Shown here in pieces: positions 1,800 to 63,521 of a DNA stretch of 64,000 bases. Location: the NCBI GenBank assembly GCA_028707875.1, contig JAQWAC010000001.1, positions 13,829-77,828 on the forward strand, in the 5' to 3' direction. The notes below the pieces were generated by a model. The model saw nothing but the letters and a program-made list of their open reading frames with translations. It ran no database searches and was not told the origin of the DNA. A program made the position numbers and the translations under genes. Source of the DNA: Candidatus Peribacteraceae bacterium (GTDB taxonomy: Bacteria; Patescibacteriota; Gracilibacteria; Peribacterales; Peribacteraceae). Position 1 is the first letter of the stretch. Every line of letters begins with the position of its first letter.

Positions 1800-3065
1800 G
1801 TGCACCAGTCCCGCTTCAGGAAATTTCTGAAAGCCGTCGGTCCCGGGTTCATCACCGGATCCGCCGATGATGATCCGTCCGGCATCGCCACGTATTCGCA
1901 GACGGGAGCGCAATTCGGCTACACCCAGTTGTGGTTTGTGCTTTTTGTGATGCCGTTTATGATCGCCATTCAGGAGATGTGCGGGCGGATCGGTCTCGTC
2001 ACGGGAAGCGGTCTTTCCGGCGTCATCCGGAAGCATTACTCAAAGCCGCTGCTCTATTGCGCCGTTGCGACCCTCCTCATTGCAAACACGATCAACATCG
2101 GTGCGGATCTGGGGGCGATGGCGTCCTCCGCGGAACTGGTGCTCGGTCTTCCGTACATCTTCTGGCTCATCGGCATGACGGCTTTGATTATTTTCCTCGA
2201 AGTATTCGTTGCATACCGTACGTACGTCAAGGTGCTCAAGTATCTCTGCTTCTCCCTCTTCGCCTATATCATCGCGGCCTTCAGCGTCACGCAGCCGTGG
2301 GGGGAGATTCTCCGTTCGCTCTTCGTGCCCTTCTTCTCCTTCTCCAAGGAGTATCTCTTCAACCTCGTCGCGCTCTTCGGCACCACGATCTCGCCCTACC
2401 TTTTCTTCTGGCAATCGGACGAGGAGGTGGAAGAGGAGATCCTGCATCACCAGATCAGGGATTTCGGCACGGGGATGCCCCATGTCAGCAGCAGGACGAT
2501 GCATGAGATGCGTCTGGACACCTCCATGGGGATGTTCTTCAGCAATCTCATCACATTCTTCATCATCACGACCACGGCATCGACGCTCGGTGCCAACGGG
2601 ATCCGGACCGTCGCGACGGCCACGGAGGCGGCGGAAGCCCTTCAGCCTCTTGCCGGTCCGTTCGCATCGCTCCTGTTCGCCGCAGGCGTCATCGGAACGG
2701 GGCTCCTTGGCGTGCCCATTCTTGCCGCTTCCGCGTCATATGCGATCTCCGAGGCGGTGGGGTGGAAGCCGGGGCTTTTCCGTACGTTCAAGCAGGCGCC
2801 GGGGTTCTATCTGGTGATCGTTCTTTCCACGGTCGTGGGACTTACGGTGAACCTCCTGGGGGTCCCCTCCTTCACCATGCTCTACTACGCGGCCGTTCTT
2901 AACGGAATCATGGCCCCTCCGCTCATGATGTTCATTTTGCTTGTGGCGAACAACCGCGCCATCATGGGGCGCAATACGAACGGATGGTTCTCCAATGTGG
3001 CCGGATTCATTCTGACGATGGCGATGTCGATCGCTGCAGCCGCTCTCATTGTCATGCTCTTCTAG
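1800..3065 (+). CDS. Nramp-family divalent metal cation transporter
   Basis: GTG start. N-terminal GPGFITGSADDDPSGIATYSQTGAQFGY signature of Nramp-like transporters; about 11 hydrophobic segments across 421 aa. Confidence 0.8.
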   Translation: MHQSRFRKFLKAVGPGFITGSADDDPSGIATYSQTGAQFGYTQLWFVLFVMPFMIAIQEMCGRIGLVTGSGLSGVIRKHYSKPLLYCAVATLLIANTINIGADLGAMASSAELVLGLPYIFWLIGMTALIIFLEVFVAYRTYVKVLKYLCFSLFAYIIAAFSVTQPWGEILRSLFVPFFSFSKEYLFNLVALFGTTISPYLFFWQSDEEVEEEILHHQIRDFGTGMPHVSSRTMHEMRLDTSMGMFFSNLITFFIITTTASTLGANGIRTVATATEAAEALQPLAGPFASLLFAAGVIGTGLLGVPILAASASYAISEAVGWKPGLFRTFKQAPGFYLVIVLSTVVGLTVNLLGVPSFTMLYYAAVLNGIMAPPLMMFILLVANNRAIMGRNTNGWFSNVAGFILTMAMSIAAAALIVMLF

Positions 3066-3086
3066 AAAGGCTCCGGATATGCAGGA

Positions 3087-3100
3087 CAGGAATATTCCTG
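3087..3100. terminator. perfect palindrome CAGGAATATTCCTG between convergent genes (possible bidirectional terminator)
   Basis: Lies between the Nramp stop (3065) and the FMN-reductase stop (3119). Short stem and weak U-run. Confidence 0.3.
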
Positions 3101-3118
3101 CCCTACGTCTATAGCTTT

Positions 3119-3793
3119 TCAAAAAAATCGTTCGGCAAAGGAGCGGATGATGCGGTTTGCGAGGTTTGCGAGCGAGCGTTTCAGCGGGAGCTTGCCGGTT
3201 CTCGCATACTCAGAGACGAGCCTTGAGAATTTCTCGCCTTCTGACCGGACTTTCTTCAGGCTCCCGGGTCGTTCATGGACCACGAGTCCGAAGACGCCGC
3301 GCCCTTTGGTGCATCTGGGTTCAAAGTGCGTTCCGCAGTGTGCCGCGCCGAAATATTTGAAAGCCTCCGCGACGGAACTCGTGGTTTTCTTCAGAAGTGC
3401 GGTCCATGCGGGTGCCGGTGCCCCGCCGGTGAAAATCAGGAAGAAAGGCAGTCCCGTGAGTGCCGCGCGGGTGTGGTTTTCCCCCAGACCGAAGGCTCCG
3501 ATACGATCGATCAGATTCTTCAAATGTGCCGGGACGGAGAAATTCCAGACGGGGGAGGCGATGACGAGTCCGTTGAGATTCCGGAATGCCTCTTTGAGGC
3601 GGCGAAAGTCTTCCTCTTCCGGGGCATCGGGTGCGTAGTGCTTGAGGGAGAAGTGTTCCAGACCGAGATCCCTCACGAACAATTTTGTCACTTCCGAAGC
3701 GGGATTCAGCCGTATGCCTTCGATGAATGCATCCGCCAGCACGTTCGCATTGCTCGGATCATTCGTGCCGGCGAGGAGGACAAGAATCTTCAT
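3119..3793 (-). CDS. NAD(P)H-dependent FMN reductase / flavodoxin-like fold oxidoreductase
   Basis: Start chosen at MKILVLLAGTNDPSNANVLA (ATG at 3793). LVIASPVWNFSVPAHLKNLIDRI is typical of the FMN_red family. Confidence 0.8.
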   Translation of the reverse strand: MKILVLLAGTNDPSNANVLADAFIEGIRLNPASEVTKLFVRDLGLEHFSLKHYAPDAPEEEDFRRLKEAFRNLNGLVIASPVWNFSVPAHLKNLIDRIGAFGLGENHTRAALTGLPFFLIFTGGAPAPAWTALLKKTTSSVAEAFKYFGAAHCGTHFEPRCTKGRGVFGLVVHERPGSLKKVRSEGEKFSRLVSEYARTGKLPLKRSLANLANRIIRSFAERFF

Positions 3794-4153: not shown

Positions 4154-7100
4154 ATGCAGCCCCGATCCGCCTCCGTTCCGCAGGCAGCAGCCGCTCCGCG
4201 CAAAGAGTCCGCCTCTCACTTTCATCGTGGGAAGGGTCTTGCCGTCCCGCGTGTCTTCACGACTCCCGGGAGTGATCCTCTGGAGGAAGTGAAGTACGAG
4301 AAGCGCACCAGTCGCATCAAGAACCCCGACGGGTCCGTCGTCTTTGAGATGGAGGGTGCCGAGGTGCCCGTGGAATGGAGCCAGATGGCGACGGATATCA
4401 TGGTGAGCAAGTATTTCCGCAGGGCCGAAGTGCCCCAGACCGATGCGCACGGGAATGTCCTGCGCGACGAGCAGGGCGTCGTCGTCACGGGGCCCGAGCG
4501 CAGCGTGAAGCAGGTGATCCGCAGGCTTGCGGGGTGCTGGCGGCACTGGGGGCAGCAGGAGGGATACTTTGAGACGGCACAGGATGCTCAGGCCTTCGAA
4601 GACGAACTTTCCTACATGCTCGTGCATCAGATGGCGGCACCCAACAGTCCCCAGTGGTTCAACACAGGTCTTAAGTATGCCTACGGCATCACGGGGCCGG
4701 CACAGGGTCATTACTATTGCGATCCCAAGACGGGTGAGATGAAGCAGAGCGAGGATGCCTACACACATCCGCAACCGCATGCGTGCTTCATTCTCTCGGT
4801 GGCGGATGACATGGTGAATCCGGGCGGCATCATGGATCTCTGGGTCCGCGAGGCGCGCCTCTTCAAGTACGGATCGGGGACGGGCACGAACTTCAGCAAG
4901 CTTCGTGGCGGCAAGGAACCCCTCTCAGGCGGCGGGATGAGTTCGGGGCTCATGAGTTTCCTCAAGATCGGTGATCGTGCCGCAGGAGCCATCAAATCAG
5001 GCGGAACGACACGTCGGGCAGCCAAGATGGTCTGTCTGGATCTGGATCATCCGGATATCGTCGAATTTATCGACTGGAAGGCAAAGGAGGAGAAGAAGGT
5101 CGAGGCGCTCGCGGATGCGGGCTACTCCACCGACTTCAACGACGAGGCGTATCAGACGGTTTCCGGTCAGAACTCCAATAACTCCGTCCGCGTGCCGCAT
5201 GCGTTCTTCGAAGCGGTGGAGAAGGACGGCGACTGGAACCTCTACTGGCGCACGGAGCTCCGGAAGGCCGCCAAGGAGGGGAGAGAGCCTGCGCCCTGCA
5301 ACGTTCTGCGTGCACGGGATCTCTGGGACAAGATCGGGTTCGCCGCGTGGGCGTGCGCCGATCCGGGCGTGCAATACGACACCACCATTAACGACTGGCA
5401 CACGTGTCCCGCGGACGGTCGTATCAATGCGAGCAATCCCTGCAGTGAGTACATGTTCCTCGACAACACCGCCTGCAACCTCGCGTCCATCAATGCGCTG
5501 AAGTTCTACGATGAGGAACACGCGAGCTTCCGGGCGGAGGAATTCAAACACGCGGTGCGTCTCTGGACGATCGTGCTCGAGATCTCCGTTCTGATGGCGC
5601 AGTTCCCGAGCAAGGAGATCGCCGATTTGAGTTACCGCTACCGCACACTGGGGCTCGGACATGCGAATCTGGGTGCCATGCTCATGCGCATGGGGATCCC
5701 GTACGACTCCGATGCCGCGCGGGCGCTCGCCGGCGTCATCACGGCGATCATGACGGGGGAGTCCTATGCCGCCTCGGCGGAGATGGCCGGCAAGCTCGGG
5801 ACATTCTCCGCCTTCGCAAGCAACCGCGAAGACATGCTCCGTGTCATCCGCAATCACCGACGTGCCGTCTACGACGCGCCCGGACGGGAATATGAGGGAC
5901 TGCACGTCGTGCCGGTCGGCATCGACCAGCGCACGGCACCCGCAGACCTCCTGTCCGTCGCCAAGGAGTGCTGGGATCGCGCACTCGCGCTCGGGGAGCA
6001 GAATGGCTTCCGCAACGCGCAAGTGAGTGTCATCGCGCCCACGGGGACGATCGGGCTCCTCATGGACTGCGACACGACGGGCATTGAGCCGGATTTCGCC
6101 CTTGTGAAGTTCAAGAAGCTTGCGGGCGGCGGCTACATGAAGATTGTCAACCAGTCCGTGGAGTCCGCTCTGCGTGCGCTCGGGTACACCGATGACCGGA
6201 TGCGCGACATCATGCGCTATGTCATGGGCACATTGAGTCTGGAGGGGGCCCCCCACGTGAACCGCGATACGTTGAAGAGAAAAGGCTTCACGGATGAGGA
6301 CATCGCCAAAGTGGAGAAGAATCTGCCCTCTGTCTTCGACTTCCGTTCGGCCTTCAGCAAGTGGGCTCTCGGACCGGAACTGATGGAGCGATTGGGATTC
6401 TCCAAAGAGCGCACGGATGATCCTTCCTTCGATCTTCTCGCAACGCTCGGCTTCACTCCGCAGCAGGTGGAGGAGGCCAATGTCGTCGTCTGCGGTTACA
6501 TGACCGTGGAGGGCGCGCCGCTCCTCAAGCCTGAGCACCTGCCGGTCTTCGACTGTGCCAGCCGGTGCGGCAAGGAGGGCAAGCGCTATATCTCCGCGGA
6601 GGGGCATATCCGCATGATGGCCGCCATACAGCCGTTCATCACCGGTGCCATTTCCAAGACCATCAATCTTCCGAATGAGGCCACGGTGGAGGATATCAAG
6701 AATGCCTACTTGCTTTCATGGAAGCTCGGTCTCAAAGCGAATGCGCTCTACCGGGACGGCTGCAAACTGAGCCAGCCGCTCTCCGGTCAGTCAAAAAAGG
6801 CCAGGAAGAAAGACGAAGAGAAGGTGCCCGAAGTGCGCCGTGAAGTGGTGGAGAGGGTCATTGTGAAGGAGGTGCCGCGTCGCCGGAAGCTCCCCGATGA
6901 GCGGCCGTCCCTGACGCACAAATTCTCCGTGGGCGGGCATGAGGGGTACCTGCACGTCGGTCTGTATGAAGACGGAAAGCCCGGAGAGATCTTTATCAAG
7001 ATAGCCAAAGAAGGTTCCACGCTCTCCGGCGTGATGGATACGTTGGCGCTCTCGCTCTCCATGAATCTGCAGTACGGCGTCCCGCTGGAAGTTCTCTGCG

Positions 7101-7540
7101 AGAAGCTGGTGCGCACGCGCTTCGAGCCCATGGGCATGACGAGCAACAAGGAGATTCCGATGGTACAAAGTCTCATGGATTACCTCGGACGGTGGCTTGC
7201 GCTCAAGTTCCTCACAAAGGACATGGCCATGCGCTTCCATAACGCCGATCTGGTTGAGCGTGCCTATCATGAAGGCTCCAAGAGCAAAGATGCCTTTGCG
7301 ATGTCACTTCCCATTGTCGACGAAGGCGCGCAGGCAAACGGTTTTGCGCACATTGTCTCCGTCGGCATGCCCAAGGAGGATCTCTCCGTTCTCAGTAAGC
7401 CTCTCACGTCGCATGTGGACAGCGCCCGTCAGCAGGGATTCACGGGGTCGATCTGCTCCGGATGCGGCAGCATCCGCATGAAGCGCAACGGATCGTGCGA
7501 AGTGTGTCTGGATTGCGGCGCAACGAGCGGCTGCAGCTAA
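4154..7540 (+). CDS. nrdJ: class II (adenosylcobalamin-dependent) ribonucleotide reductase NrdJ
   Basis: Typical N-terminus (VEWSQMATDIMVSKYFRR), NPCSEY active-site region, TGIEPDFALVKFKKLAGGG, ISKTINLP, C-terminal Cys cluster. Start set at ATG 4154, downstream of the operator pair; 4034 and 4109 are alternatives. Confidence 0.9.
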   Translation: MQPRSASVPQAAAAPRKESASHFHRGKGLAVPRVFTTPGSDPLEEVKYEKRTSRIKNPDGSVVFEMEGAEVPVEWSQMATDIMVSKYFRRAEVPQTDAHGNVLRDEQGVVVTGPERSVKQVIRRLAGCWRHWGQQEGYFETAQDAQAFEDELSYMLVHQMAAPNSPQWFNTGLKYAYGITGPAQGHYYCDPKTGEMKQSEDAYTHPQPHACFILSVADDMVNPGGIMDLWVREARLFKYGSGTGTNFSKLRGGKEPLSGGGMSSGLMSFLKIGDRAAGAIKSGGTTRRAAKMVCLDLDHPDIVEFIDWKAKEEKKVEALADAGYSTDFNDEAYQTVSGQNSNNSVRVPHAFFEAVEKDGDWNLYWRTELRKAAKEGREPAPCNVLRARDLWDKIGFAAWACADPGVQYDTTINDWHTCPADGRINASNPCSEYMFLDNTACNLASINALKFYDEEHASFRAEEFKHAVRLWTIVLEISVLMAQFPSKEIADLSYRYRTLGLGHANLGAMLMRMGIPYDSDAARALAGVITAIMTGESYAASAEMAGKLGTFSAFASNREDMLRVIRNHRRAVYDAPGREYEGLHVVPVGIDQRTAPADLLSVAKECWDRALALGEQNGFRNAQVSVIAPTGTIGLLMDCDTTGIEPDFALVKFKKLAGGGYMKIVNQSVESALRALGYTDDRMRDIMRYVMGTLSLEGAPHVNRDTLKRKGFTDEDIAKVEKNLPSVFDFRSAFSKWALGPELMERLGFSKERTDDPSFDLLATLGFTPQQVEEANVVVCGYMTVEGAPLLKPEHLPVFDCASRCGKEGKRYISAEGHIRMMAAIQPFITGAISKTINLPNEATVEDIKNAYLLSWKLGLKANALYRDGCKLSQPLSGQSKKARKKDEEKVPEVRREVVERVIVKEVPRRRKLPDERPSLTHKFSVGGHEGYLHVGLYEDGKPGEIFIKIAKEGSTLSGVMDTLALSLSMNLQYGVPLEVLCEKLVRTRFEPMGMTSNKEIPMVQSLMDYLGRWLALKFLTKDMAMRFHNADLVERAYHEGSKSKDAFAMSLPIVDEGAQANGFAHIVSVGMPKEDLSVLSKPLTSHVDSARQQGFTGSICSGCGSIRMKRNGSCEVCLDCGATSGCS

Positions 7541-27104: not shown

Positions 27105-27136
27105 TGAAGAGAGAAGGCTTCGCAGCTCCCTTTGCT

Positions 27137-27167
27137 GGACCTTCCCTTTACCCTCCCGTGGCGGCGG
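27137..27167 (+). repeat. partial (3' part only) copy of the GC-rich multi-hairpin element
   Basis: GGACCTTCCCTTTACCCTCCCGTGGCGGCGG resembles GGGCCTTCCCCTCGCACCCCCCGTGGCGGCGG at 43434-43464. Confidence 0.45.
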
Positions 27168-27218
27168 GCTCCTCCACGATTATGAAAAAATCCGTGCCGA
27201 AGCATTGGGTCTCATGAA

Positions 27219-31129: not shown

Positions 31130-31207
31130 TGGGGCGAGCGAAGGGTTTCGAACCCTCGACCTCCAGGGCCACAACCTGGCGCTCTAACCAACTGAGCTAC
31201 GCCCGCC
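31130..31207 (-). tRNA. tRNA-His (GUG) with encoded G-1 and CCA
   Basis: GGCGGGCG-TA-GCTC-AGTTGGTTA-GAGC-G-CCAGG-TTGTGGC-CCTGG-AGGTC-GAGGG-TTCGAAA-CCCTT-CGCTCGC-C-CCA folds as a cloverleaf. G-1 pairs with C73. Confidence 0.9.
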
Positions 31208-38660: not shown

Positions 38661-41330
38661 ATGCCCAAATCTGCTATAATTATTCGAATTCTTCTCTATC
38701 CTTTTGATCGAACCCATTTGATTCCATTCCTCGACATCGCATTCTGGCCTCTCCTCTGGATCGCTGCCGCAGCGATCGGCACTGCGACAGTGCCGGATTT
38801 CTGGGGATCCGTCGGGGGATGGTATATGTCCGCGCCACTGCGGAACACCGGCATCATTATTCTTACGTATCTCGTGTGGAAGTGGTGTAAGTGGAACTTT
38901 CGCTATGTCTACGCTGTCTACCGGTCGCGAACACTCGTGACGATGAAGATTCTTCTTCCGCGTTCGGATTCCAAGATTGATCAGGAAAAAAGGACGGAGA
39001 AGGACTTCAAGGAGAAAGTGGCCGCCATGGAGCAGTTATACCGTGCACTCTGGGAAGTACAGAGCCTCACCTTCTGGCAGGAACTGCATTACTGGTTCTT
39101 TCAGTACCTCACGATCAGTCTGGAGCTCTATGTGGAGAAGAACCAGCTCATGCTCTACGTCGTCACACAACCGAGTCTCGTCTCCGTCGTGGAGAAGCAG
39201 ATTACCGCCTTCTATCCTGCGGCGGAGGTGACCAATCATCCGACGCCCAATCTCTGGCCGAAGGGACTCAAGTTCATCGGATACAACATGATTCCCGGAA
39301 AATCCTTCATGTACCCGATCCGGAGTTATGAGCACATGCAGGACGATCCGCTGAACGGCATTGCAAACGTTCTCAGTAAAATGGAGGAGGGGGAGACGGC
39401 GGGGGTCCAGATTGTGCTTTCGCCGTCTTCTGAAAAAAAGTGGGGCAGGCGCACGAAGCACTTCGCATCCGAAAAATTCAAGGGGAAGAGCGAGAATATG
39501 TTCAGTCATATTCCGATTCTCGGATCGCTTCTGACAGTGCTCGGAGGGGTGGCGACGGGGACCGAAGGCTCATCGTTCGCTCCCGGCGCGACCAAAGGCG
39601 ATTCATTTGTCCGCATGATTCAGCCTGAGGAGGAGCTCTACAAGCGCATGGGCGAGAAGGCCGGCATGAGTTACTTCTTCGCTTCCGTGCGCATCGCCGC
39701 CGCCGCCAAGACGTGGAAGCGCACGTTTGAGATCACGAACAACCTTCAGGTCGCATTCAACGCCTTCAAAGATGTCTACGGCAACTACTTCCAGAATCGA
39801 CGCATGTTCGTGGATTTCTTCCCGCTCTCACTCAATGCGCCGATCATTTACTCGCTCTGGAAGCAGCGCATCAATGGATTCTGGCATCGGCGTTCTCTTC
39901 TGGTTGAGAAGGAACTGGCGGCCCTCTACCACTTCCCGGACAGCCGCTACAACAAGATGCCGATCATCGAGTGGATCACCTATCGCGTCCTTCCGCCGCC
40001 GCCCAATGTGCCCGCCGAAGGCATTGTCATCGGTGTCAGCAAATTCCGCGCGCAGGAAACGAAGATCCGTTTCATGGATACGGATCGCACGCGTCACCAT
40101 TACATCATCGGAAAATCCGGAACGGGAAAATCCGCGCTGCTCTCATGGATGAGCCGTCAGGACATCGCCCACGGCGACGGCGTGTGCATGGTCGATCCGC
40201 ACGGAGACCTCATCGAGGATGCGCTCGCCCATACGCCCAAAGAGCGTGCGAAGGAGATCGTGCTCTTCGATCCGGCGGACGGCGAGCGGCCGATGGGTCT
40301 GAATCTTCTGGAGGCCAAGACGCCCGAGGAGAAGGATCGCGCCGCCATCGATGCGATGGAAATCTTCATCAAGCTCTTCGGAAACGAAATCTTCGGTCCG
40401 CGCATTCAGCACTACTTCCGCAACGGTTGTCTGACGCTCATGGACGACGAGGAGGAAGGTGCGACGCTTATCGATGTGCCGAGGCTGTTCGTGGACGACG
40501 AGTTCCAGCACTTCAAGGTCGCCAAGTGCAAGAATCCCGTGGTGCGGAGCTTCTGGGAGCACGAGATCGCCAAGACCGGTGCACGCGAAAAAGAGGAGAT
40601 GATCCCGTACTTCTCCGCGAAGTTCGGGCCCTTCATCACGAATACGACGATGCGCAACATCATCGGACAGCCGAAGAGCGCCTTCAACATCCGCGAGATT
40701 ATGGACACGGGCAAGGTGCTCCTCGTGAACCTCTCCAAGGGGAAGATCGGCGATGTCAACGCGCAGCTTCTCGGCCTCATCTTCGTGAACAAGGTGAACA
40801 TGGCCGCGCTCTCCCGCGCCGATGTCCCGCGCGAGAAGCGTCGCCGCTTCTACCTGTATGTCGACGAATTCCAGAACTTCGTGACGGATGCCTTCGCCAC
40901 GATCCTGTCGGAGGCACGCAAGTACGAACTCGGTCTGATCATGGCGCACCAGTACATCGGGCAGCTCGTGGGGAAAACGGAGTCGTACGGTCAGGCGAGT
41001 ACCAAAATGCGCGATGCGGTCTTCGGTAACGTCGGCACGATCTCCAGCTTCAAGATCGGCGCGGAGGACGCCGAGTACATGGCCAAGGAATACGCGCCGG
41101 ATCTCTCCGAACAGGACGTCATCGGCATCCCGAACTTCAATTGCTACGTGAAGCTTTCCATCAACAACGTCCCCTCGCGTCCCTTCAGTATGGCGACGAT
41201 CTGGGACGAGTCGGACCGCAACGAGGAGCTCGGGGCACTGATCAAGGAATACAGCCGCATGAAGTACGGCAGGAAGAAGGTCTTCGTCGATCAGGAAATT
41301 GAGGATCGCATCGGGATCGTGAGAGGTTGA
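38661..41330 (+). CDS. membrane-anchored VirD4/TraD/TrwB-like P-loop ATPase (T4SS coupling-protein-like), paralog 2
   Basis: Several N-terminal TM segments, Walker A (HHYIIGKSGTGKSA), MVDPHGDLIEDAL, Walker B (FYLYVDEFQNF), AHQYIGQL. In the 81-aa Walker-A stretch I aligned by hand, 53 positions are identical to paralog 1. Confidence 0.8.
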   Translation: MPKSAIIIRILLYPFDRTHLIPFLDIAFWPLLWIAAAAIGTATVPDFWGSVGGWYMSAPLRNTGIIILTYLVWKWCKWNFRYVYAVYRSRTLVTMKILLPRSDSKIDQEKRTEKDFKEKVAAMEQLYRALWEVQSLTFWQELHYWFFQYLTISLELYVEKNQLMLYVVTQPSLVSVVEKQITAFYPAAEVTNHPTPNLWPKGLKFIGYNMIPGKSFMYPIRSYEHMQDDPLNGIANVLSKMEEGETAGVQIVLSPSSEKKWGRRTKHFASEKFKGKSENMFSHIPILGSLLTVLGGVATGTEGSSFAPGATKGDSFVRMIQPEEELYKRMGEKAGMSYFFASVRIAAAAKTWKRTFEITNNLQVAFNAFKDVYGNYFQNRRMFVDFFPLSLNAPIIYSLWKQRINGFWHRRSLLVEKELAALYHFPDSRYNKMPIIEWITYRVLPPPPNVPAEGIVIGVSKFRAQETKIRFMDTDRTRHHYIIGKSGTGKSALLSWMSRQDIAHGDGVCMVDPHGDLIEDALAHTPKERAKEIVLFDPADGERPMGLNLLEAKTPEEKDRAAIDAMEIFIKLFGNEIFGPRIQHYFRNGCLTLMDDEEEGATLIDVPRLFVDDEFQHFKVAKCKNPVVRSFWEHEIAKTGAREKEEMIPYFSAKFGPFITNTTMRNIIGQPKSAFNIREIMDTGKVLLVNLSKGKIGDVNAQLLGLIFVNKVNMAALSRADVPREKRRRFYLYVDEFQNFVTDAFATILSEARKYELGLIMAHQYIGQLVGKTESYGQASTKMRDAVFGNVGTISSFKIGAEDAEYMAKEYAPDLSEQDVIGIPNFNCYVKLSINNVPSRPFSMATIWDESDRNEELGALIKEYSRMKYGRKKVFVDQEIEDRIGIVRG

Positions 41331-42752: not shown

Positions 42753-43064
42753 ATGGTTTCCTTCTCACAACTCAAAGACATGTTCCGCCTTCAGCGTGAG
42801 GCGAAAAAAGTGAAGAAAGAACTTCGCAAGATTCAGGTCGAGGCGGAGGCACAGGGCGTCAAAGTGGTTGTCTCTGCCGAGATGGAAGTGGTGAGTATCG
42901 AGATTGCGCCGGATGTTCCGCACGAAAAGATCGCATCGCTCCTCACGGATGCCCTGAACCGCGCACTGAAGAAGGCGCAGATCGTCTCTTCGGAGAAGAT
43001 GCAGGGCGTGATGGGCGAGATGGGATTCCCGACGGACAAGGGAATGAGGGGGATGGCGCAATAA
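42753..43064 (+). CDS. YbaB/EbfC-family nucleoid-associated protein
   Basis: ~100 aa with a KKELRKIQVEAEAQGVKVVVSAEMEVVSIEI pattern. Confidence 0.8.
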   Translation: MVSFSQLKDMFRLQREAKKVKKELRKIQVEAEAQGVKVVVSAEMEVVSIEIAPDVPHEKIASLLTDALNRALKKAQIVSSEKMQGVMGEMGFPTDKGMRGMAQ

Positions 43065-43288
43065 GGATGAATTGCGTCATAGTTCGAAGATACAAAACAT
43101 CAAACAACCCATGGGAGGACCGCCGCTTTGTGGAATGAAAACACAAACAACCAACAAAATCTCCGTGCTTGGCCGTCAGGAGGGTGAGGGGGTGTCGGGG
43201 GCCAGAGGGAACCGGACAAGGTGCCCTAGGCCCCCGACCAAAGAAAGAGGTGACGAATACGTTGGGGAAATCAACGGACAAATGATCT

Positions 43289-43470
43289 CCTCTTTCTTTG
43301 TCAGGGCGACAAAGAAAGAGGGAAAGAAAGCGCTCCGCCGCCAACTCACCTCCACCCGGCCCTGTGCCTCCTCATCGATGCCTACAGGGATTCGGCATCG
43401 ATTCGTCGGCTCGATCCCGCTGCGGCGGGACAGGGCCTTCCCCTCGCACCCCCCGTGGCGGCGGACCACC
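43289..43470 (+). repeat. GC-rich multi-hairpin element, copy 1 (candidate structured RNA or MITE-like repeat)
   Basis: Hairpin CCTCTTTCTTTGTC-AGGGC-GACAAAGAAAGAGG. Closing stem CCGCCGCC (43335-42) / GGCGGCGG (43457-64). Stem GGCCCTG/CAGGGCC. Hairpin ATCGATGCC-TACAGGGATTC-GGCATCGAT. Hairpin CCCGC-TGCG-GCGGG. Strand inferred only from context. Confidence 0.6.
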
Positions 43471-43581
43471 CGGATGATATTCATTCGTATTAACAAATCT
43501 TTCCTTTCTGGTTCTACCTGAATCATTTTGTCTAAAACTCTCACTGTATCCAATCGGATCCTTCAGCTAGAGTGGCTCGGC

Positions 43582-44586
43582 ATGAAGAAAATTCTGCTCG
43601 TCATTGTCGTGCTCGTGTTCGGAACTTTCCTCTGGTACAAATTCGAGCTGCGTCCGCTCGAGAGAGGAAGCGAGAAGCGTCAGAAAGTGGAGATCACGGC
43701 GGGCTCATCGGTTTCGGACATTGCGGATGAGTTGTCGGAGAAGGAGATCATCCGTTCTCCTCTCGCCTTCAAAGTCTTCGTGCGGATGAACGGAAGGGAG
43801 AAGGGACTGCAGGCCGGAACATTCCTTCTCCGTCCTTCCATGTCCGTCGCAGAGATCGTGGAGGTGCTGCGGGCGGGGAAGTCCGAGGAGGTGAGCATCA
43901 CGATCCCCGAGGGGTGGACGCTCAAAGACATCGACACGCTCTTTGCGCGCAAGGGAATCACCGAATCCGGGAGTCTGATCATCTGTGCCAATTCGTGCGA
44001 TTTCTCCTCGTTTGAATTCCTGACGAACGTCACGGGTCTCGCTCCCCGCGGCGGGAAGGTGGAGGGTTATCTCTTCCCCGACACGTACTTCGTTTCCACG
44101 CAGGACTTCGTTCCCAAGTTCTTCCTCGAGCGCATGCTTACGACGTTCCGGAAGAGCGTTCTTTCCAAGTACGGCGAGGAGATGGCGAAGTCCGGTCACT
44201 CACTTCAGGAAATCATGACCATGGCGTCTCTCATCGAGGCGGAGACGCGCACGGATACCGAGCGGCCGATCGTTGCGGGGATCCTGTGGAAGCGCTACAA
44301 GGAGGGCATGGGACTCGGAGTGGATGCGACAGTTCGTTACATTCTGGATAAGCCGTCGGATACGATCACCGTGGAGGATCTGGAAGTGCAGAGTCCGTAT
44401 AACACGCGGAAATTCAAGGGGCTTCCGCCCGGGCCCATCGCAAGTCCGGGCCTTTCCAGCGTTCTTGCCGCCCTGCGTCCCGAGGAGAGTCCCTACTGGT
44501 TTTACCTCCATGATACGAAGGGGCTCATTCATTACGCCGTGACGAACGAGGAGCATAATACGAACAGGGCGCGGTATTTGAAATAG
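43582..44586 (+). CDS. mltG: endolytic murein transglycosylase MltG (YceG-like)
   Basis: N-terminal TM, PEGWTLKDI, ASLIEAE, YNTRKFKGLPPGPIASPG. Start at MKKILLV (43582). Confidence 0.88.
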   Translation: MKKILLVIVVLVFGTFLWYKFELRPLERGSEKRQKVEITAGSSVSDIADELSEKEIIRSPLAFKVFVRMNGREKGLQAGTFLLRPSMSVAEIVEVLRAGKSEEVSITIPEGWTLKDIDTLFARKGITESGSLIICANSCDFSSFEFLTNVTGLAPRGGKVEGYLFPDTYFVSTQDFVPKFFLERMLTTFRKSVLSKYGEEMAKSGHSLQEIMTMASLIEAETRTDTERPIVAGILWKRYKEGMGLGVDATVRYILDKPSDTITVEDLEVQSPYNTRKFKGLPPGPIASPGLSSVLAALRPEESPYWFYLHDTKGLIHYAVTNEEHNTNRARYLK

Positions 44587-46770: not shown

Positions 46771-46886
46771 GTGCGGTACGCAGAACCAAGTATGCAGTAC
46801 GCAGGGGCTTTGGAGAAACGGTTGTTAGGGAAAACAGAGGTTTCCGCTCTGTATACTGAATACCGTATACCGTATACTTTCCGTGC
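46771..46886. repeat. word-periodic imperfect hairpin (GTACGCAG / CGTATAC words), element G
   Basis: Left arm GTGCGGTACGCAGAACCAAGTATGCAGTACGCAG. Right arm TGTATACTGAATACCGTATACCGTATACTTTCCGTGC. The arms place CATACT (minus strand) and TATACT (plus strand, 46873-46878) upstream of der and leuS. Confidence 0.5.
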
Positions 46887-46887
46887 A

Positions 46888-49278
46888 ATGGAACCATCTT
46901 TCAACCCGACCATCATCGAGGATAAGTGGCAGAAGAAGTGGGAGGAAGCCAGGATCTACGAAGCGGATCTGAAGAAAGCCAAGAATCCCTTCTACGCGCT
47001 CGTGATGTTCCCGTACCCGAGCGGGGACAAGCTCCACGTGGGGCACTGGTACAACTTCGCTCCGGCGGACAGTTACGCGCGCTTCATGCGGATGCACGGG
47101 AAGGATGTCATGGCGCCCATGGGCTTCGATGCATTCGGGCTGCCTGCGGAGAACTATGCCATCAAGAGCGGCATCCATCCGGACACGTCCACGCGCAGTA
47201 ACGTGCAAACCATGGTGAAGCAGCTGCGACGTATGGGCTGCATGTACGACTGGTCCAAGATGGTGAACACGTCCACGCCCGAGTACTACCGTTGGACGCA
47301 GTGGCTCTTCCTCCAGATGTACGAGCGCACGTTGGCTTACAAGAAGGAGGCGCCGGTGAATTTCTGTCCGAGTTGCCAGACGGTGCTGGCCAATGAGCAG
47401 GCGCAGGACGGCAAGTGCGAACGATGCGGGACAGAAGTGATCCAGAAGAACCTGAGTCAGTGGTTCTGGAAGATCACGGATTATGCCGAACGGTTGCTGA
47501 ACGGTCTCGAGGATCTGGACTGGCCGGAAAAAACCAAGATCATGCAGAGGAACTGGATCGGGAAGAGCGAAGGAGCAGAGATCACGTTTGATATCGTCGG
47601 TCACGATGAGCGGATCACCGTCTTCACCACGCGCCCCGACACGCTCTTCGGCGCCACGTATATGGTCTTGGCTCCGGAGCACCCGCTGGTGGAGAAGATC
47701 ACGCCCAAGTCGCACTGGGGCGCTGTGCATGCATATCGTGAGGGAGTGAAGAAGAAGACGGAACTCGAGCGGACAGATTTGGCAAAAGTGAAAACCGGCG
47801 AACCGACGGGCGCGTTTGCGGTCAATCCCGCGACGGGCGAGGAGATTCCCATCTGGATTGCGGACTACGTGCTCTCCACGTACGGAACCGGAGCGATCAT
47901 GGCGGTGCCGGCGCATGACGAACGCGACTTCGCATTTGCCAAAAAGTTCAACCTGCCGATCAAAGAAGTGGTGGCGGGAGGAAATGTGGAGGAGGCGGCC
48001 TTTTGCGACGAGGGCCCTGCGGTGAATTCGGAATTCCTGAATGGACTGAAAACCTCCGATGCCAAGAAGCGCATGATCGCGTGGCTGGAGGATGCGGGGA
48101 AGGGGAGGGAGCGGACCACGTACCGACTCCGTGACTGGCTGGTCAGCCGCCAACGGTACTGGGGCGCGCCGATTCCCATTGTCTACGATCCCGAGGGGAA
48201 ACCGCATCCGGTTCCGGAGAAGCATTTGCCGTGGCTGCTTCCGGATGATGTGGAGTTCAAACCGACGGGCAAGTCTCCGCTCATGGAGAGCAAGGAATTC
48301 ATCCGCCGCACCGAGAAGATCTTCGGCAAAGGGTGGACGCCCGAGTTCGATACGATGGATACCTTCGTTTGCAGCAGCTTCTACTACCTCCGGTATCTGG
48401 CCGGGGGTGACGAGAAGCGCATTGTGGATCCAACGATTGAGCGGAAGTGGATGCCGGTGAGCATGTACATCGGCGGACCGGAGCATGCGTGCATGCACCT
48501 GATCTACGCACGATTTGTGATGATGGCACTCAAAGATTTTGGCTTCGTGTCGCATGAAGAACCGTTCAAAAAATTAGTTCACCAAGGTCTGATCACCCAC
48601 AAGGGGGCCAAGATGAGCAAGAGCAAAGGCAACGTCGTGAGTCCGGACAGCTTCGTGGACCGCTACGGGTCCGATGTCTTCCGCATGTACCTGATGTTCA
48701 TGGGTCCCTTCACCGACGGAGGGGACTGGAATGATCTGGGGATCAAGGGGATTGATCGCTTCGTGAGGCGCTTGTACGCGCTTTGCACGGAGAGTGTGAA
48801 TAAAAAAGTAGATCAACAGAAAGTCATTGCGACCGTGCATCGGACGGTGAAGAAAGTCACGAGAGATATCGGGGAAATGCACTTCAACACCGCCATCTCC
48901 GCGCTCATGGAACTCCTCAATCTTCTGGAAGAGGAAGGGGGAGTGAGCAAGGAATCTGCGAAGACCATGGTCCTTCTGCTCGCTCCGCTCGCCCCGCACC
49001 TGAGCGAGGAGCTCTGGGAAGTTCTCGGCGGGAAGGGCTTTGTGATCGAGCAGCACTGGCCGCTCTTCGAGGAAGCACTCACCAAAGAGTCGATGGTGGT
49101 TCTTGCGATTCAGGTGAACGGGAAAGTCCGCGGCGAGATCGAGGTGGAGGCGAATGCCGCGAAGGACGATGTTCTCGCGAAAGCGAAGGAGCACCCGAAT
49201 GTGCACAAGTTTCTGGAGGGAATGGTTATTAAGAAGGAAATATATGTACCTTGTAAATTAGTTAGTATTGTTGTTTAA
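46888..49278 (+). CDS. leuS: leucine--tRNA ligase
   Basis: PYPSGDKLHVGHWYNF (HIGH region), editing domain, GAKMSKSKGN (KMSKS). Start at MEPSFNP (46888). Confidence 0.95.
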   Translation: MEPSFNPTIIEDKWQKKWEEARIYEADLKKAKNPFYALVMFPYPSGDKLHVGHWYNFAPADSYARFMRMHGKDVMAPMGFDAFGLPAENYAIKSGIHPDTSTRSNVQTMVKQLRRMGCMYDWSKMVNTSTPEYYRWTQWLFLQMYERTLAYKKEAPVNFCPSCQTVLANEQAQDGKCERCGTEVIQKNLSQWFWKITDYAERLLNGLEDLDWPEKTKIMQRNWIGKSEGAEITFDIVGHDERITVFTTRPDTLFGATYMVLAPEHPLVEKITPKSHWGAVHAYREGVKKKTELERTDLAKVKTGEPTGAFAVNPATGEEIPIWIADYVLSTYGTGAIMAVPAHDERDFAFAKKFNLPIKEVVAGGNVEEAAFCDEGPAVNSEFLNGLKTSDAKKRMIAWLEDAGKGRERTTYRLRDWLVSRQRYWGAPIPIVYDPEGKPHPVPEKHLPWLLPDDVEFKPTGKSPLMESKEFIRRTEKIFGKGWTPEFDTMDTFVCSSFYYLRYLAGGDEKRIVDPTIERKWMPVSMYIGGPEHACMHLIYARFVMMALKDFGFVSHEEPFKKLVHQGLITHKGAKMSKSKGNVVSPDSFVDRYGSDVFRMYLMFMGPFTDGGDWNDLGIKGIDRFVRRLYALCTESVNKKVDQQKVIATVHRTVKKVTRDIGEMHFNTAISALMELLNLLEEEGGVSKESAKTMVLLLAPLAPHLSEELWEVLGGKGFVIEQHWPLFEEALTKESMVVLAIQVNGKVRGEIEVEANAAKDDVLAKAKEHPNVHKFLEGMVIKKEIYVPCKLVSIVV

Positions 49279-60907: not shown

Positions 60908-63166
60908 TTACGGAGTAGCCATCTTCTCGATATAGACCTTCCGCGCCTTGGCCCCCTCCGTCGGCCCGATGAGACCCTTCTGTTCCATGATGTCGAGGAG
61001 TTTTGCGGCACGCGCGTACCCCACGCTCATGCGGCGCTGGAGCAGGCTCGCGGAGGCCTTGCCCGTCTCCTGCACCACGCGCACGGCTTCGAAGAAGAGA
61101 TCATCGCCGCCGTTGTCATCCGCTTCCAGATCGATCTGCGCGTACGGTTTGGAAAGGCTCTGCTCACCTTCTTCTTCGCCCGCGTTCTCTTCATCGGAGC
61201 TCAGGGCGATCTGTTCCGTCATCTTGCCGCCGCCGGCGATCTTCACGGCGTTGATGACACGTTCCACTTCCTTGGTGGAGACAAAGATGCCCTGAATGCG
61301 CACGGGATTGGGAGTGGATGCCGTCAAGTAGAGCATGTCCCCCTTACCGAGGAGGTCTTCCGCTCCGATGCCGTCGAGAATGGTGCGTGAGTCGACGGAG
61401 CTCACCGTACGGAACGCGATGCGTGTGGGGATGTTCGCTTTGATCAGTCCCGTGATGACATCCACGCTGGGGCGCTGGGTGGCGATGACGAGGTGCATCC
61501 CGACGGCACGGGCCATCTGGGCGATACGGGCGATCATCGTTTCCGTATCACGCCGGTACTGGCGCATCATGAGGTCTGCAAGCTCGTCCACCACCACGAC
61601 GATGCGCGGGAGCATATCCACCTCCTCCGTCTGCTTGGCGTTGAATTCATCGAGGTTGCGGGCGCCTGCATCCGAGAAGCGGTGGAGGCGTCGTCCCATC
61701 TCCGCCACGGCCCACCGGAGGGCCTGCAGCGCCTTCTCCGATTCGCTGATGACAGGAGTGAGAAGATGAGGAATCCCGTCATAGGGAGTCAATTCCACGC
61801 GCTTGGGGTCGATGAGGATCAGTTTGAGTTCGTTCGGGGCGTTCTGGTAGAGGAGAGACGCGAGGAGCGTGTTCATACAGACGGACTTTCCCGAACCCGT
61901 GGCGCCAGCGATGAGGAGATGCGGCATGTCTTCCAGACACGCGACGACGGCCGCTCCGCCCACGTCGCGCCCGAGCGGGAAGGTGAGCTGGGAGGTGCTC
62001 TGCGTGAACTCGGGGCTCTCCAGAATCTCGCGCATGTGCACGATGGTGCGCACCGAATTCGGCATCTCGATGCCGACGAGGGACTTGCCCGGAATGGGGG
62101 CCTGAATGCGCAGGCTGTGGGCCGAGAGGGCCAGAGCCAGGTCGTCCTTGAGGGATTCGATTTTGCTGAGGCGCACGCCCTCCGCGGGCTTCAGCGTGAA
62201 TTGCGTGACGGTTGGTCCGGGGTGCGCGTCGCGCATCGTCACGTCGATCTCGAATTCCTTCAGCTTCTCCTCGATCTGCTTGGCCTGCATCTTCAATTCC
62301 TCATCGTCGATGGCAAGTTCGCTCTGCGTGCCATCCAGAAGATCGAGCGAGGGGAATGTCCACTCTTCAAAGCGCTTATCCGTCATTTCCAGAAGATCTT
62401 TGATCTTGTTCTTCACGATCTTGCCCGTCTTCTCCGAGGCGATCTTCTTGGCCATCGCTTTCTTGTCCTTCTCCCGTGCGAAAGCCGGTCGCACGATATT
62501 GAGTTCCGGCGCCTCGCGATCTTCTTCCACAAGGTCTTCCATCGGTTCTTCCTCCTCCTCAGTTTTCTCCGCAATCGTTTGACGTTCCATTCTCGGAGTG
62601 CGGATTCGTTCGGGTTGCTTTCGCATCCGTTCGCGGATTGCCTGAGCAATGGCACCCAGATTCGGCTCAAAGGCGACCACAAAGCCGATCAGGAAGAGCG
62701 CCGAGAGGACGGTGTAGCCGACCGGACGGGAGAAGAAGAGCAGGAACGGCACGCTTGCGAGGAAACCGATGGCGCCTGCGAGTTCATCCCGTCGCATGCC
62801 TATCTCCTCGATGGGTGCGCCGATGTGCATGAGTCCGAGGAACGTGACGAGGCAGAGGACGAGTCCGACATTGCGCTTCACCTTGAAGCGGTCTTCCGAC
62901 GTGAGCCAGTGGAGCGCTCCCGCGATCACGAGGACGACGGGGAAGATCATGCTCCACTTCCCGAAGAAGAACGTAAGGACGCCATTCGCCGTGCTTCCGG
63001 CTGTTCCGGCACGGTTCATGAGTGACAGGAAGAGCAGGATGCCGACAGTGATCTGAAGTGTTCCGGATATCTGCCGTTGGGCACGGGGATTGAGTTCCAG
63101 TCCGGGGGACGGGCGACGCTTGGTGCGGTGTTTCAGTTTCCTTCGGTGACGCGGCATTGATGTCAT
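60908..63166 (-). CDS. ftsK: DNA translocase FtsK
   Basis: N-terminal TM helices, GATGSGKSVCMN, VVVDELADLMM, gamma-domain wHTH (SASLLQRRMSVGYARAAKLLDIMEQKGLIG). Confidence 0.95.
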   Translation of the reverse strand: MTSMPRHRRKLKHRTKRRPSPGLELNPRAQRQISGTLQITVGILLFLSLMNRAGTAGSTANGVLTFFFGKWSMIFPVVLVIAGALHWLTSEDRFKVKRNVGLVLCLVTFLGLMHIGAPIEEIGMRRDELAGAIGFLASVPFLLFFSRPVGYTVLSALFLIGFVVAFEPNLGAIAQAIRERMRKQPERIRTPRMERQTIAEKTEEEEEPMEDLVEEDREAPELNIVRPAFAREKDKKAMAKKIASEKTGKIVKNKIKDLLEMTDKRFEEWTFPSLDLLDGTQSELAIDDEELKMQAKQIEEKLKEFEIDVTMRDAHPGPTVTQFTLKPAEGVRLSKIESLKDDLALALSAHSLRIQAPIPGKSLVGIEMPNSVRTIVHMREILESPEFTQSTSQLTFPLGRDVGGAAVVACLEDMPHLLIAGATGSGKSVCMNTLLASLLYQNAPNELKLILIDPKRVELTPYDGIPHLLTPVISESEKALQALRWAVAEMGRRLHRFSDAGARNLDEFNAKQTEEVDMLPRIVVVVDELADLMMRQYRRDTETMIARIAQMARAVGMHLVIATQRPSVDVITGLIKANIPTRIAFRTVSSVDSRTILDGIGAEDLLGKGDMLYLTASTPNPVRIQGIFVSTKEVERVINAVKIAGGGKMTEQIALSSDEENAGEEEGEQSLSKPYAQIDLEADDNGGDDLFFEAVRVVQETGKASASLLQRRMSVGYARAAKLLDIMEQKGLIGPTEGAKARKVYIEKMATP

Positions 63167-63275
63167 TGTAGCGCATGATGAGAGTGTGCAAAGGCCTCAT
63201 GTAAGGCTTGTAAAAGCAAAATGCGTGGATTCATTTTCTCTCTTGAAGATCAGAAAGAAGTTCTGAACGGTGTTT

Positions 63276-63445
63276 CCACCTTTGTCCGGCGACAAAGGTG
63301 GAGCCAAAACGCCGGCGCGCCAACCCCAACCCGCCCGGCCCTGTGTCTCCTCGTCAGCTCCTACAAGGATTCGGAGCCGACTCGTCGGCACGCCCCGCAG
63401 CCGCGGGGCAGGGCCTTCCCCTTCACCCCCCGTGGCGCGCCACCT
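63276..63445 (+). repeat. GC-rich multi-hairpin element, copy 2
   Basis: Same architecture as 43289-43470: CCACCTTTGTC-CGGC-GACAAAGGTGG; GGCGCGCC (63314-21) / GGCGCGCC (63434-41); GGCCCTG/CAGGGCC; GTCAGCTCC-TACAAGGATTC-GGAGCCGAC; CCCCGC-AGCC-GCGGGG. Confidence 0.6.
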
Positions 63446-63521
63446 CCCAATTAATCTTCCAACAGCGCCGATTTTGTAAATTCTTTTTATGTCTTTCTCA
63501 TCTTCCTGATACGATGCTGCC

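Follow-up and report, generated by a model that had tools for sequence, protein, structure and literature searches.

The window, the whole 64,000-nucleotide stretch of Candidatus Peribacteraceae DNA that we analysed, holds two intact copies and two remnants of an intergenic element, and its only match to Rfam 15 at gathering threshold is tRNA-His. The features considered below, with neighbouring genes given for context, are as follows.

27128 to 27172, + strand: remnant of the element's 3' tail (CTGGACCTTCCCTTTACCCTCCCGTGGCGGCGGG) between convergent genes (pattern match, alignment, gene calls).
42753 to 43064, + strand: ybaB-like gene upstream of copy 1 (context; Pfam YbaB_DNA_bd).
43165 to 43285, - strand: degenerate partial element, head-to-head with copy 1 (covariance model, 25.8 bits; inverted repeats).
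43283 to 43472, + strand: copy 1, full-length element of subfamily A (sequence, fold, covariance model at 173.1 bits; boundaries from the family flank profile).
Copy 1 helices: P1 43289-43302/43308-43321; P2 43335-43342/43457-43464; P3 43358-43364/43431-43437; P3a 43366-43368/43408-43410; P4 43374-43382/43394-43402 with its loop at 43383-43393; P5 43415-43420/43425-43430.
43582 to 44586, + strand: mltG, downstream of copy 1 (context; translation, named homologs, Pfam YceG).
60908 to 63166, - strand: ftsK, divergent upstream neighbour of copy 2 (context; homologs named DNA translocase FtsK).
63270 to 63449, + strand: copy 2, full-length element of subfamily B (sequence, fold, covariance model at 182.9 bits).
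Copy 2 helices: P1 63276-63286/63291-63301; P2 63314-63321/63434-63441; P3 63337-63343/63409-63415; P4 63353-63361/63373-63381 with its loop at 63362-63372; P5 63393-63398/63403-63408.

The first-pass annotation of this DNA had proposed a multi-helix element in two copies with a common layout. We located both copies on the + strand, where they show 81% column identity when aligned, and folding each one confirmed the shared architecture. A perfect 5' hairpin, P1, is followed by an A-rich linker and a GC-rich closing stem, P2, which encloses P3, a P4 hairpin with an 11-nt loop, and a small hairpin, P5. These leading parts read CCTCTTTCTTTGTC (P1), GAAAGAAAGCGC (linker) and CCGCCGCC (P2) in copy 1, and CCACCTTTGTC, CCAAAACGC and GGCGCGCC in copy 2. 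As had been claimed, the helices differ between copies in a manner that preserves pairing: copy 1 has the P1 arms CCTCTTTCTTTGTC/GACAAAGAAAGAGG and copy 2 has CCACCTTTGTC/GACAAAGGTGG, the P2 arms are CCGCCGCC/GGCGGCGG and GGCGCGCC/GGCGCGCC, respectively, and P4 carries four double compensatory changes, along with an A-C mismatch in copy 2 (n=1) that had been missed. The P3 stem GGCCCTG/CAGGGCC (GGCCCUG/CAGGGCC as RNA) is the same in both copies and is lengthened in each by GCC/GGC; the P4 loop TACA(G/A)GGATTC is kept in both, and the P5 sequences agree with those first reported. The distances of about 110 and 80 nt to the downstream genes came out at 112 nt for mltG, with its ATG at 43582, and 77 nt for the rmlD-like gene. 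Both folds are more stable than those of dinucleotide shuffles (z = -4.0 for copy 1 and -4.9 for copy 2). A covariance model built from 11 curated copies scored the two at 173 and 183 bits, with the next independent match in the window at 10 bits. The helix pattern of the window copies far exceeds chance.

Scanning an annotated collection of species-representative genomes with a 29-nt pattern that spans the loop and a joiner returned 14 loci, all in metagenome-assembled genomes (MAGs) of Candidatus Peribacteria/Peregrinibacteria, with 2-4 loci per MAG. An independent scan of metagenomes, with the P1 palindrome alone as query, returned 83 loci, of which about 60 had a full body scoring 100-186 bits and some others had a 98-nt short form. 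Four P1-palindrome matches from the metagenomes (L015, L023, L025 and L050) proved to be terminator-like hairpins of unrelated, AT-rich organisms and were left out. Together, the pattern scans and the covariance model yielded about 75 distinct copies beyond the window pair. Since a query confined to P1 recovers full bodies, the conservation of the loop and joiners is free of ascertainment bias, and the single-stranded joiners thought to be conserved between the window copies recur in the loci from this independent scan. Unpaired nucleotides, including several loops, are invariant across the family, and the P4 loop has the consensus U(C/A/G)CA(A/G)GG(A/C/U)UUC among the unbiased copies.

The compensatory substitutions noted between the window copies are real. 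Among 77 distinct members, in an alignment fitted to the covariance model and hence somewhat favourable to the structure, 97.1% of cells are standard pairs, and both partners vary in 29 of 41 pairs. For the same sequences, none of 500 shuffles reached the observed pairing values, and the covariation score was 0.155 for the real structure versus 0.026-0.032 for slid controls. A plain MAFFT alignment of 11 sequences already shows covariation at 18 of the 41 pairs. P5 varies in length over 9-21 nt and beyond, in steps other than threes that break any reading frame, so the element is non-coding, in keeping with the earlier suspicion that the overlapping open reading frames are artefacts. The lack of a match to a known RNA family was also borne out against Rfam 15, both in the gathering-threshold scan of the window and in permissive scans of copy 1, and permissive scans of six further loci gave no meaningful match to the element. 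Neither the Peribacter genome paper nor literature searches on structured RNAs of CPR bacteria and on REP or MITE elements in Patescibacteria yielded a description of it. We conclude that the element is an undescribed structured repeat family of about 170 bases, limited to Peribacteria, a group of uncultured CPR bacteria.

Comparison of family members revealed a modular organisation. The invariant scaffold consists of the perfect hairpin P1, the short A-rich linker, GC-rich P2, and the C-rich single strands that P2 encloses; within it lies an optional but conserved domain made up of P3-P4, with or without P5. P5 itself takes the form of a hairpin, variable in sequence, in about half of the members, the remainder having a short linker in its place. 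The 98-nt short form, found at several distinct loci, has P1, the linker and P2 around just two C-rich strands and lacks P3-P5, and an even shorter "mini" form adjoins full copies on the opposite strand. Three kinds of tiny perfect palindromes are nested in the element. They occupy the loops of P1 and P4, the linker and the 3' tail but never stems, and one is present in the Ca. P. riflensis copy (L029) and missing from the orthologous copy in L078.

Two subfamilies could be distinguished, in which P1, linker and P2 change jointly: CTTTCTTTG / AAAGAAAGCGC / CCGCSGCC in subfamily A and CCACCTTTGTC / CCAAAACGC / GGCGCGCC in subfamily B. Both recur in other genomes. Because the window copies belong to different subfamilies, the compensatory substitutions seen between them are subfamily differences. 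In the flank profile, conservation is sharply bounded, running from 6 nt before P1 (TYTTTK) to 8 nt after P2 (ACCCCYCC). The two ends of the element, 5'-TYTTTKCCACC and GCGCCACCCCYCC-3', do not form an inverted repeat, and inspection by eye of the printed flanks of about 65 copies revealed no target duplications.

Two further pieces of the element lie in the window. The fragment reported at 27137-27167 does correspond to the 3' tail, over about 45 nt, but it is not a copy of the whole element; scored as such it reaches just 7.6 bits (E = 1.3), and we therefore regard 27128-27172 as a remnant rather than an intact copy. The degenerate partial element at 43165-43285 owes most of its 25.8 bits to the shared P1 palindrome. 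It has a P1-like arm, GACCAAAGAAAGAGG, on the + strand at 43237-43251 that could pair with the 5' arm of copy 1, a GGGGGCC/GGCCCCC hairpin at 43194-43203/43229-43238, and a C-rich tail on the - strand. Its arrangement with copy 1 resembles the mini-plus-full composite of L001, L004 and L013.

Orthologous loci in relatives lack both window copies. The ybaB-mltG spacer is 517 nt long in the window. At five orthologous loci, drawn from four relatives whose MltG is 64-82% identical, it spans 108-173 nt, and the covariance model found no match in those five spacers. Similarly, the divergent spacer between ftsK and the rmlD-like gene is without the element in three relatives (FtsK 79-81% identical), and in Ca. 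P. riflensis it measures just 70 nt. Because synteny is kept in these relatives and yet the element is missing, the window copies are either lineage-specific gains or were lost in all the relatives sampled. Copy density is uneven, with none in 59 kb of related sequence versus the two intact copies and two remnants in the 64-kb window. The MAG STD1_181 carries three near-identical instances of a composite of about 400 nt, each with unrelated flanks, in which a full element is accompanied by a mini element on the opposite strand. Copies have thus been gained and lost at given loci and duplicated as units.

Several copies are retained at orthologous positions, and there they are more similar to one another than the coding DNA that flanks them: 87% versus about 70% identity in one comparison, 85% versus 66-71% in a second, and, in further pairs, 95% versus 77-83% and 77% versus 71%. 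This pattern argues for purifying selection or for homogenisation by gene conversion, and simple decay after insertion does not fit it. Conservation above that of coding flanks possibly points to a host function, and the long retention of conserved copies suggests that the host may tolerate or use the element.

Genes at the fetched loci were called with a codon-usage model trained on those loci. Every copy is intergenic, and some sit between convergent genes. Both neighbours could be called for 75 copies, and with respect to these genes the element is oriented at random (+/+ 20, -/+ 19, -/- 19, +/- 17). The neighbours have unrelated functions, including mltG, an rmlD-like gene, a purQ-like gene, thyA, atpD, rplT, cysS and a gene for an acyl-CoA synthetase. 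No conserved promoter or terminator accompanies the family, the flank profile holding no information past -6 and +8, and consensus scans of the + strand, covering sigma-70 promoters and terminators, found none upstream or downstream of either window copy.

Orientation tracks replication rather than transcription, with local GC skew as a proxy. For this test, loci with similar flanks were grouped so that each group counted as one independent site, and GC skew was computed from at most 6 kb of flank per side; the test covered flanks of 3-12 kb in total rather than complete genomes, their skew standing in for replication direction. Read in the orientation of the element, skew was positive at 41 and negative at 18 of 59 deduplicated loci (p = 0.004), and among the 37 sites with an absolute skew of at least 0.03 the split was 30 to 7 (p = 2e-4). 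As controls, tRNA genes at the same loci split 6 to 15, and 51% of the coding DNA there lies on the G-rich strand. All 16 four-kb bins of the window show positive skew on the + strand, which carries both copies. The C-rich strand of the element thus tends to fall on the G-rich, leading-strand sequence, which is the lagging-strand template. A G-quadruplex cause for this bias was rejected, as the canonical motif occurs on the G-rich strand of just 5-7 of 71 copies.

Two attempts to call the active strand from the fold were also set aside. Wobble pairs at first appeared to favour one strand (160 G-U versus 29 A-C), but three conserved terminal U-G positions, a product of folding the + strand, make up most of the excess; without them the counts are 23 G-U versus 14 A-C (p = 0.19), which is not significant. 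Predicted free energy is lower for the G-rich strand in 55 of 55 copies, an advantage that reflects composition and is uninformative.

The explanation we favour, to which we give about an even chance of being correct, is that the element is a modular, non-autonomous intergenic repeat peculiar to Peribacteria, of the REP/BIME, REPIN or IS200/IS605-derivative kind, that acts as a folded single strand. Its helices would be kept because it is recognised in that folded form, most plausibly as single-stranded DNA exposed on the lagging-strand template. A strand-specific enzyme of the HUH/Y1 or a similar type, supplied in trans, would then act on the folded strand, and subfamilies A and B would represent two lineages of the same replicator.

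Enzymes of the Y1 type do occur in Peribacteria: queries with IS200, IS608 and RAYT sequences identified an IS200-like TnpA in L056 and a RAYT-like gene in L022 that lies between rpsG and fusA with simple REPs of its own. Neither emerged as a partner of the element. The end hairpins of the L056 IS200-like element (CCGGCTCTGCCGG) are unrelated to the family, and the L022 gene, the one RAYT-like gene examined, is flanked by AGAGCRGGTCTTCGACCYGCGAT hairpins that are neither P1 nor the element. No transposase gene, tnpA and tnpB included, was noticed beside copies in the flanks of the first 16 loci, which we read in translation, and a query with ISDra2 TnpB had no match in 0.78 Mb. That no partner enzyme emerged from the Y1 genes of L056 and L022 or from the flanks read counts against a mobile repeat. 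So do other observations: IS200/IS605 ends and REPINs have two related hairpins and the element has just one P1-like hairpin, orthologous copies more conserved than their coding flanks speak against selfish decay, and known REP-type elements are far simpler than a 170-nt body whose loops are invariant.

Comparison with known systems shows where a mobile-type repeat fits and where it does not. Like the REP/BIME and REPIN-RAYT systems of E. coli and Pseudomonas, the Peribacteria element is dispersed, strictly intergenic, hairpin-forming and mosaic or modular, and, as they do, it forms head-to-head pairs that are duplicated as a unit. Long persistence, which one preprint describes for REPINs within a lineage (bioRxiv 10.1101/2021.07.10.451892), is possible for both, and Y1 enzymes occur in the same organisms as the Peribacteria element. 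REPs, however, are characterised in PMC3733652 as simple 20-40 nt palindromes with a GTAG or CGTC tag; the Peribacteria element is about 170 nt long, with five helices, a multi-branch core and invariant loops, and its P1, a perfect hairpin of 11-14 bp that occurs in head-to-head pairs, has neither tag. The REP that flanks the RAYT-like gene of L022 is, moreover, a different, simple one.

Gene-less derivatives of IS200/IS605 elements (palindrome-associated transposable elements) share with the Peribacteria element the lack of terminal inverted repeats and of target duplications (the latter judged by eye in our case) and a hairpin near the left end after a short conserved flank, here TYTTTK. They are also strand-specific, as the Peribacteria element would be, and the active strand of IS200/IS605 elements lies on the lagging-strand template (PMC5027513), where the orientation bias, read from local GC skew, would also place one strand of the Peribacteria element. 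The latter differs in having no second, P1-related hairpin at its right end, no similarity to the end hairpins of L056 and no linked tnpA or tnpB noticed in the flanks of the first 16 loci.

Other repeats offer partial parallels. The pneumococcal BOX elements, Correia elements and ERIC sequences are modular, highly structured, non-coding intergenic repeats in which the number of internal modules varies, and, as in our family, they stand in either orientation relative to genes. They fold mainly as one long imperfect hairpin, Correia elements are bounded by inverted repeats and a TA duplication, and the sequences and hosts of all three differ from those of the Peribacteria element; we know of no dedicated transposase for any of the three and of no orientation with respect to replication. 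The HEARO (IscB omega RNA) and IS605-orfB motifs were orphan structured RNAs later tied to mobile elements. They are multi-helix motifs of 150-250 nt, strongly covarying, that occur several times per genome with no consistent neighbour and a body that ends at the element boundary. The Peribacteria element is equally multi-helix, strongly covarying, multi-copy and sharp-ended, and has no consistent neighbouring gene, but it has no Rfam match to these motifs and no IscB or TnpB was found nearby. Elements of this kind are already known; what is new here is how large the element is, a multi-branch architecture whose loops are invariant, a host among the CPR bacteria and the retention of copies at orthologous sites. 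If mobile, it would be a structurally complex non-autonomous replicator with a replication-strand signature and would point to a further strand-specific enzyme in Peribacteria.

A real but minority possibility is that the family is a structured non-coding RNA acting at the RNA level, transcribed from flanking promoters or by read-through from neighbours. It could act in trans like an sRNA, its C-rich, CCUCC-type anti-Shine-Dalgarno-like stretches pairing with G-rich ribosome-binding sites, or it could be a protein-binding RNA with the P4 loop as recognition hairpin. Strong covariation with invariant unpaired nucleotides is what functional RNAs display, orthologous copies are more conserved than the flanking genes, and each element has three or four conserved CCUCC-like or C-rich single-stranded segments. 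The orientation bias could equally be co-direction with replication, as highly expressed RNA genes are co-directional with replication in many bacteria. The tRNA genes at the same loci have no leading-strand preference (6 to 15), however, which weakens this argument. Because orientation relative to neighbours is random, one read-through transcript in two would be of the wrong strand. The element has neither a promoter-like signal at a constant upstream distance nor a terminator behind it, and the orthologous sites in relatives have neither window copy.

The protein-binding version finds support in the window P4 loop, where UACARGGAU corresponds, within a hairpin loop, to nine consecutive positions of the CsrA SELEX consensus RUACARGGAUGU (PMC4347634). 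At least one Peribacteria contig carries three csrA paralogs. As a role for the P4 loop, we nevertheless rejected the CsrA site: it is exact in the window copies and kept in only about 18% of the family. ACA and GGA occur together in just 10 of about 56 unbiased loops, the commonest loop being UCCAAGGCUUC. The likeness to the CsrA-sequestering RNAs CsrB and RsmZ, which rests on the consensus core in the window loop and the csrA paralogs, is limited in the same way. Each Peribacteria element has one such loop rather than multiple GGA loops, with ACA plus GGA in about 18% of unbiased copies and GGA in 48% of copies, and it has no promoter or terminator.

More broadly, it is conceivable, though we think it fairly unlikely, that the element is a host-retained structured nucleic acid of a new class. 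This could be either an RNA of about 170 nt, with anti-Shine-Dalgarno-like strands and a protein-recognition hairpin that is CsrA-like in one subfamily, or a functional, folded single-stranded DNA site that these reduced-genome CPR bacteria use on the lagging-strand template while replicating. Three results leave room for it: orthologous copies are conserved above coding DNA, several loops are invariant and the orientation is linked to replication. A retained RNA or single-stranded DNA device would constitute a new functional class of structure.

Quite improbable, in our estimation, is a non-selfish host site that works at the DNA level in a replication-oriented manner on the chromosome, for example a folded single-strand site where priming or restart takes place on the lagging-strand template, or an array to which a nucleoid or segregation protein binds. 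Such a site would suit an orientation that follows GC skew and not transcription, the exclusively intergenic placement, and the long retention and high conservation at some orthologous loci. It would not suit the uneven density (none in 59 kb of related sequence), the empty orthologous sites, or the near-identical composite duplicates inside one genome, and the remnants and nested insertions are typical of repeat turnover. We know of no precedent for a chromosomal site of this kind at 170 nt.

We consider a classical MITE derived from an insertion sequence with a DDE transposase highly improbable: the element is short, non-coding, multi-copy, intergenic and variably present, but its ends are not inverted repeats of each other and no direct duplication was seen by eye in the printed flanks of about 65 copies. 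Last, a cis-regulatory 5' leader of envelope genes such as mltG and the rmlD-like gene, whether a riboswitch or protein-binding, has a negligible chance of being right. In the window, each copy shares the orientation of an envelope-related gene that starts 77-112 nt downstream, and the architecture is complex, with conserved joiners. Across the family, however, orientation relative to neighbours is random, downstream genes include those for purine, thymidylate, ATP synthase and acyl-CoA synthetase functions, and convergent genes flank some of the copies. The element is missing at the orthologs of mltG and of the rmlD-like gene in relatives, and there is no expression platform. Given the random orientation, the unrelated neighbours and the element-free orthologous spacers, the co-orientation with envelope genes in the window is coincidental, and the leader or riboswitch role implied by the first-pass annotation does not hold. 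Its proposal of a candidate novel structured RNA stands as far as a conserved, covarying multi-helix element without an Rfam 15 family is concerned and falls, on these grounds and on the lack of a conserved promoter or terminator, with regard to a riboswitch or 5' leader.

The genomes of CPR bacteria are tiny and leave very little room for non-coding DNA; to our knowledge almost nothing is known of their non-coding elements. The family described here is lineage-specific, unusually elaborate and strongly covarying, and absent from both Rfam and the Peribacter genome paper. It could be mis-annotated as a riboswitch-like leader. The covariance model provides a marker for Peribacteraceae genomes. 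The element also breaks assemblies, as one contig ends beside copy 1.

The GC skew of the window's plus strand is positive in all 16 of the 4-kb bins that span positions 1-64000, and about 64% of the called coding DNA lies on this strand. We therefore place the window within one replichore, with the plus strand as leading-strand sequence. The sole RNA gene found by Rfam or ARAGORN in the 64 kb is carried by the minus strand, opposite the positively skewed one:

31130-31206, minus strand: tRNA-His (GTG), Rfam / ARAGORN

Copy 1 of the structured Peribacteria repeat lies in the spacer between ybaB and mltG. Two genes upstream of ybaB is a gene whose synteny is kept in relatives (L101, L102):

38661-41330, plus strand: product of 889 aa that carries DUF8128 and TrwB/T4SS coupling-protein domains

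The window's strain was also assembled independently (L098; logan:SRR22315502), in a contig of 11989 nt that stops about 100 nt past ybaB, immediately upstream of the spacer that holds the repeat. The position of this contig end suggests that assemblies are broken by the repeat.

Across the compared loci, the element's loops and linkers hold tiny nested inserts of three kinds:

about 25 nt: perfect palindrome of the CACSG...CSGTG type
34 nt: perfect palindrome, CCGCCCGTACCGAACGACGGTACGTTCGGGCGGG
about 25 nt: insert of the CCTTCG...GGCAGGC type

Element copies bearing nested inserts were found in three groups of loci:

first group: L003, L056, L068, L094, L032
second group: L027, L029, L040, L067
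third group: L001, L002, L005, L012, L013, L054, L059, L082

The 34-nt palindrome is present in the L029 copy of the element and missing from the orthologous copy in L078.

Peribacteria also carry Y1 transposase genes. In the str operon of one Peribacteria contig, with rpsG on one side and fusA on the other, sits a RAYT-like gene (L022:6881-7324) that matches Pfam Y1_Tnp (E = 1.5e-8). Simple REP hairpins (AGAGCRGGTCTTCGACCYGCGAT) surround this gene, five before it and a sixth after (flanks 6640-6860 and 7330-7375), and they are unlike the ~170-nt element. An IS200-like element adjoins tRNA-Thr in another locus (L056:7815-8450); its tnpA encodes 147 aa (Y1_Tnp, E = 5.7e-36), a hairpin ahead of tnpA overlaps the start region of the gene, and CCGGCTCTGCCGG hairpins are common to the left and right ends. 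Finally, the LeuRS product at L104:5852-6008, whose gene extends beyond the locus edge, is 967 aa long, compared with 835 aa for the window LeuRS (46771-49278), and has a precomputed Pfam Y1_Tnp match placed between tRNA-synt_1 segments. This leuS may contain a Y1-transposase-like insertion.

Upstream of cysS in L078, three csrA paralogs lie in tandem (1841-3244), each matching Pfam CsrA at E ~1e-25 and, as the ORFs are drawn, each with an N-terminal extension of ~75 residues. In L086, a weak 6S RNA-like Rfam match (2262-2415, plus strand; 31.1 bits against a gathering score of 46.4; E = 0.004) directly adjoins a short-form element, the 98-nt version that consists of P1, linker and P2.
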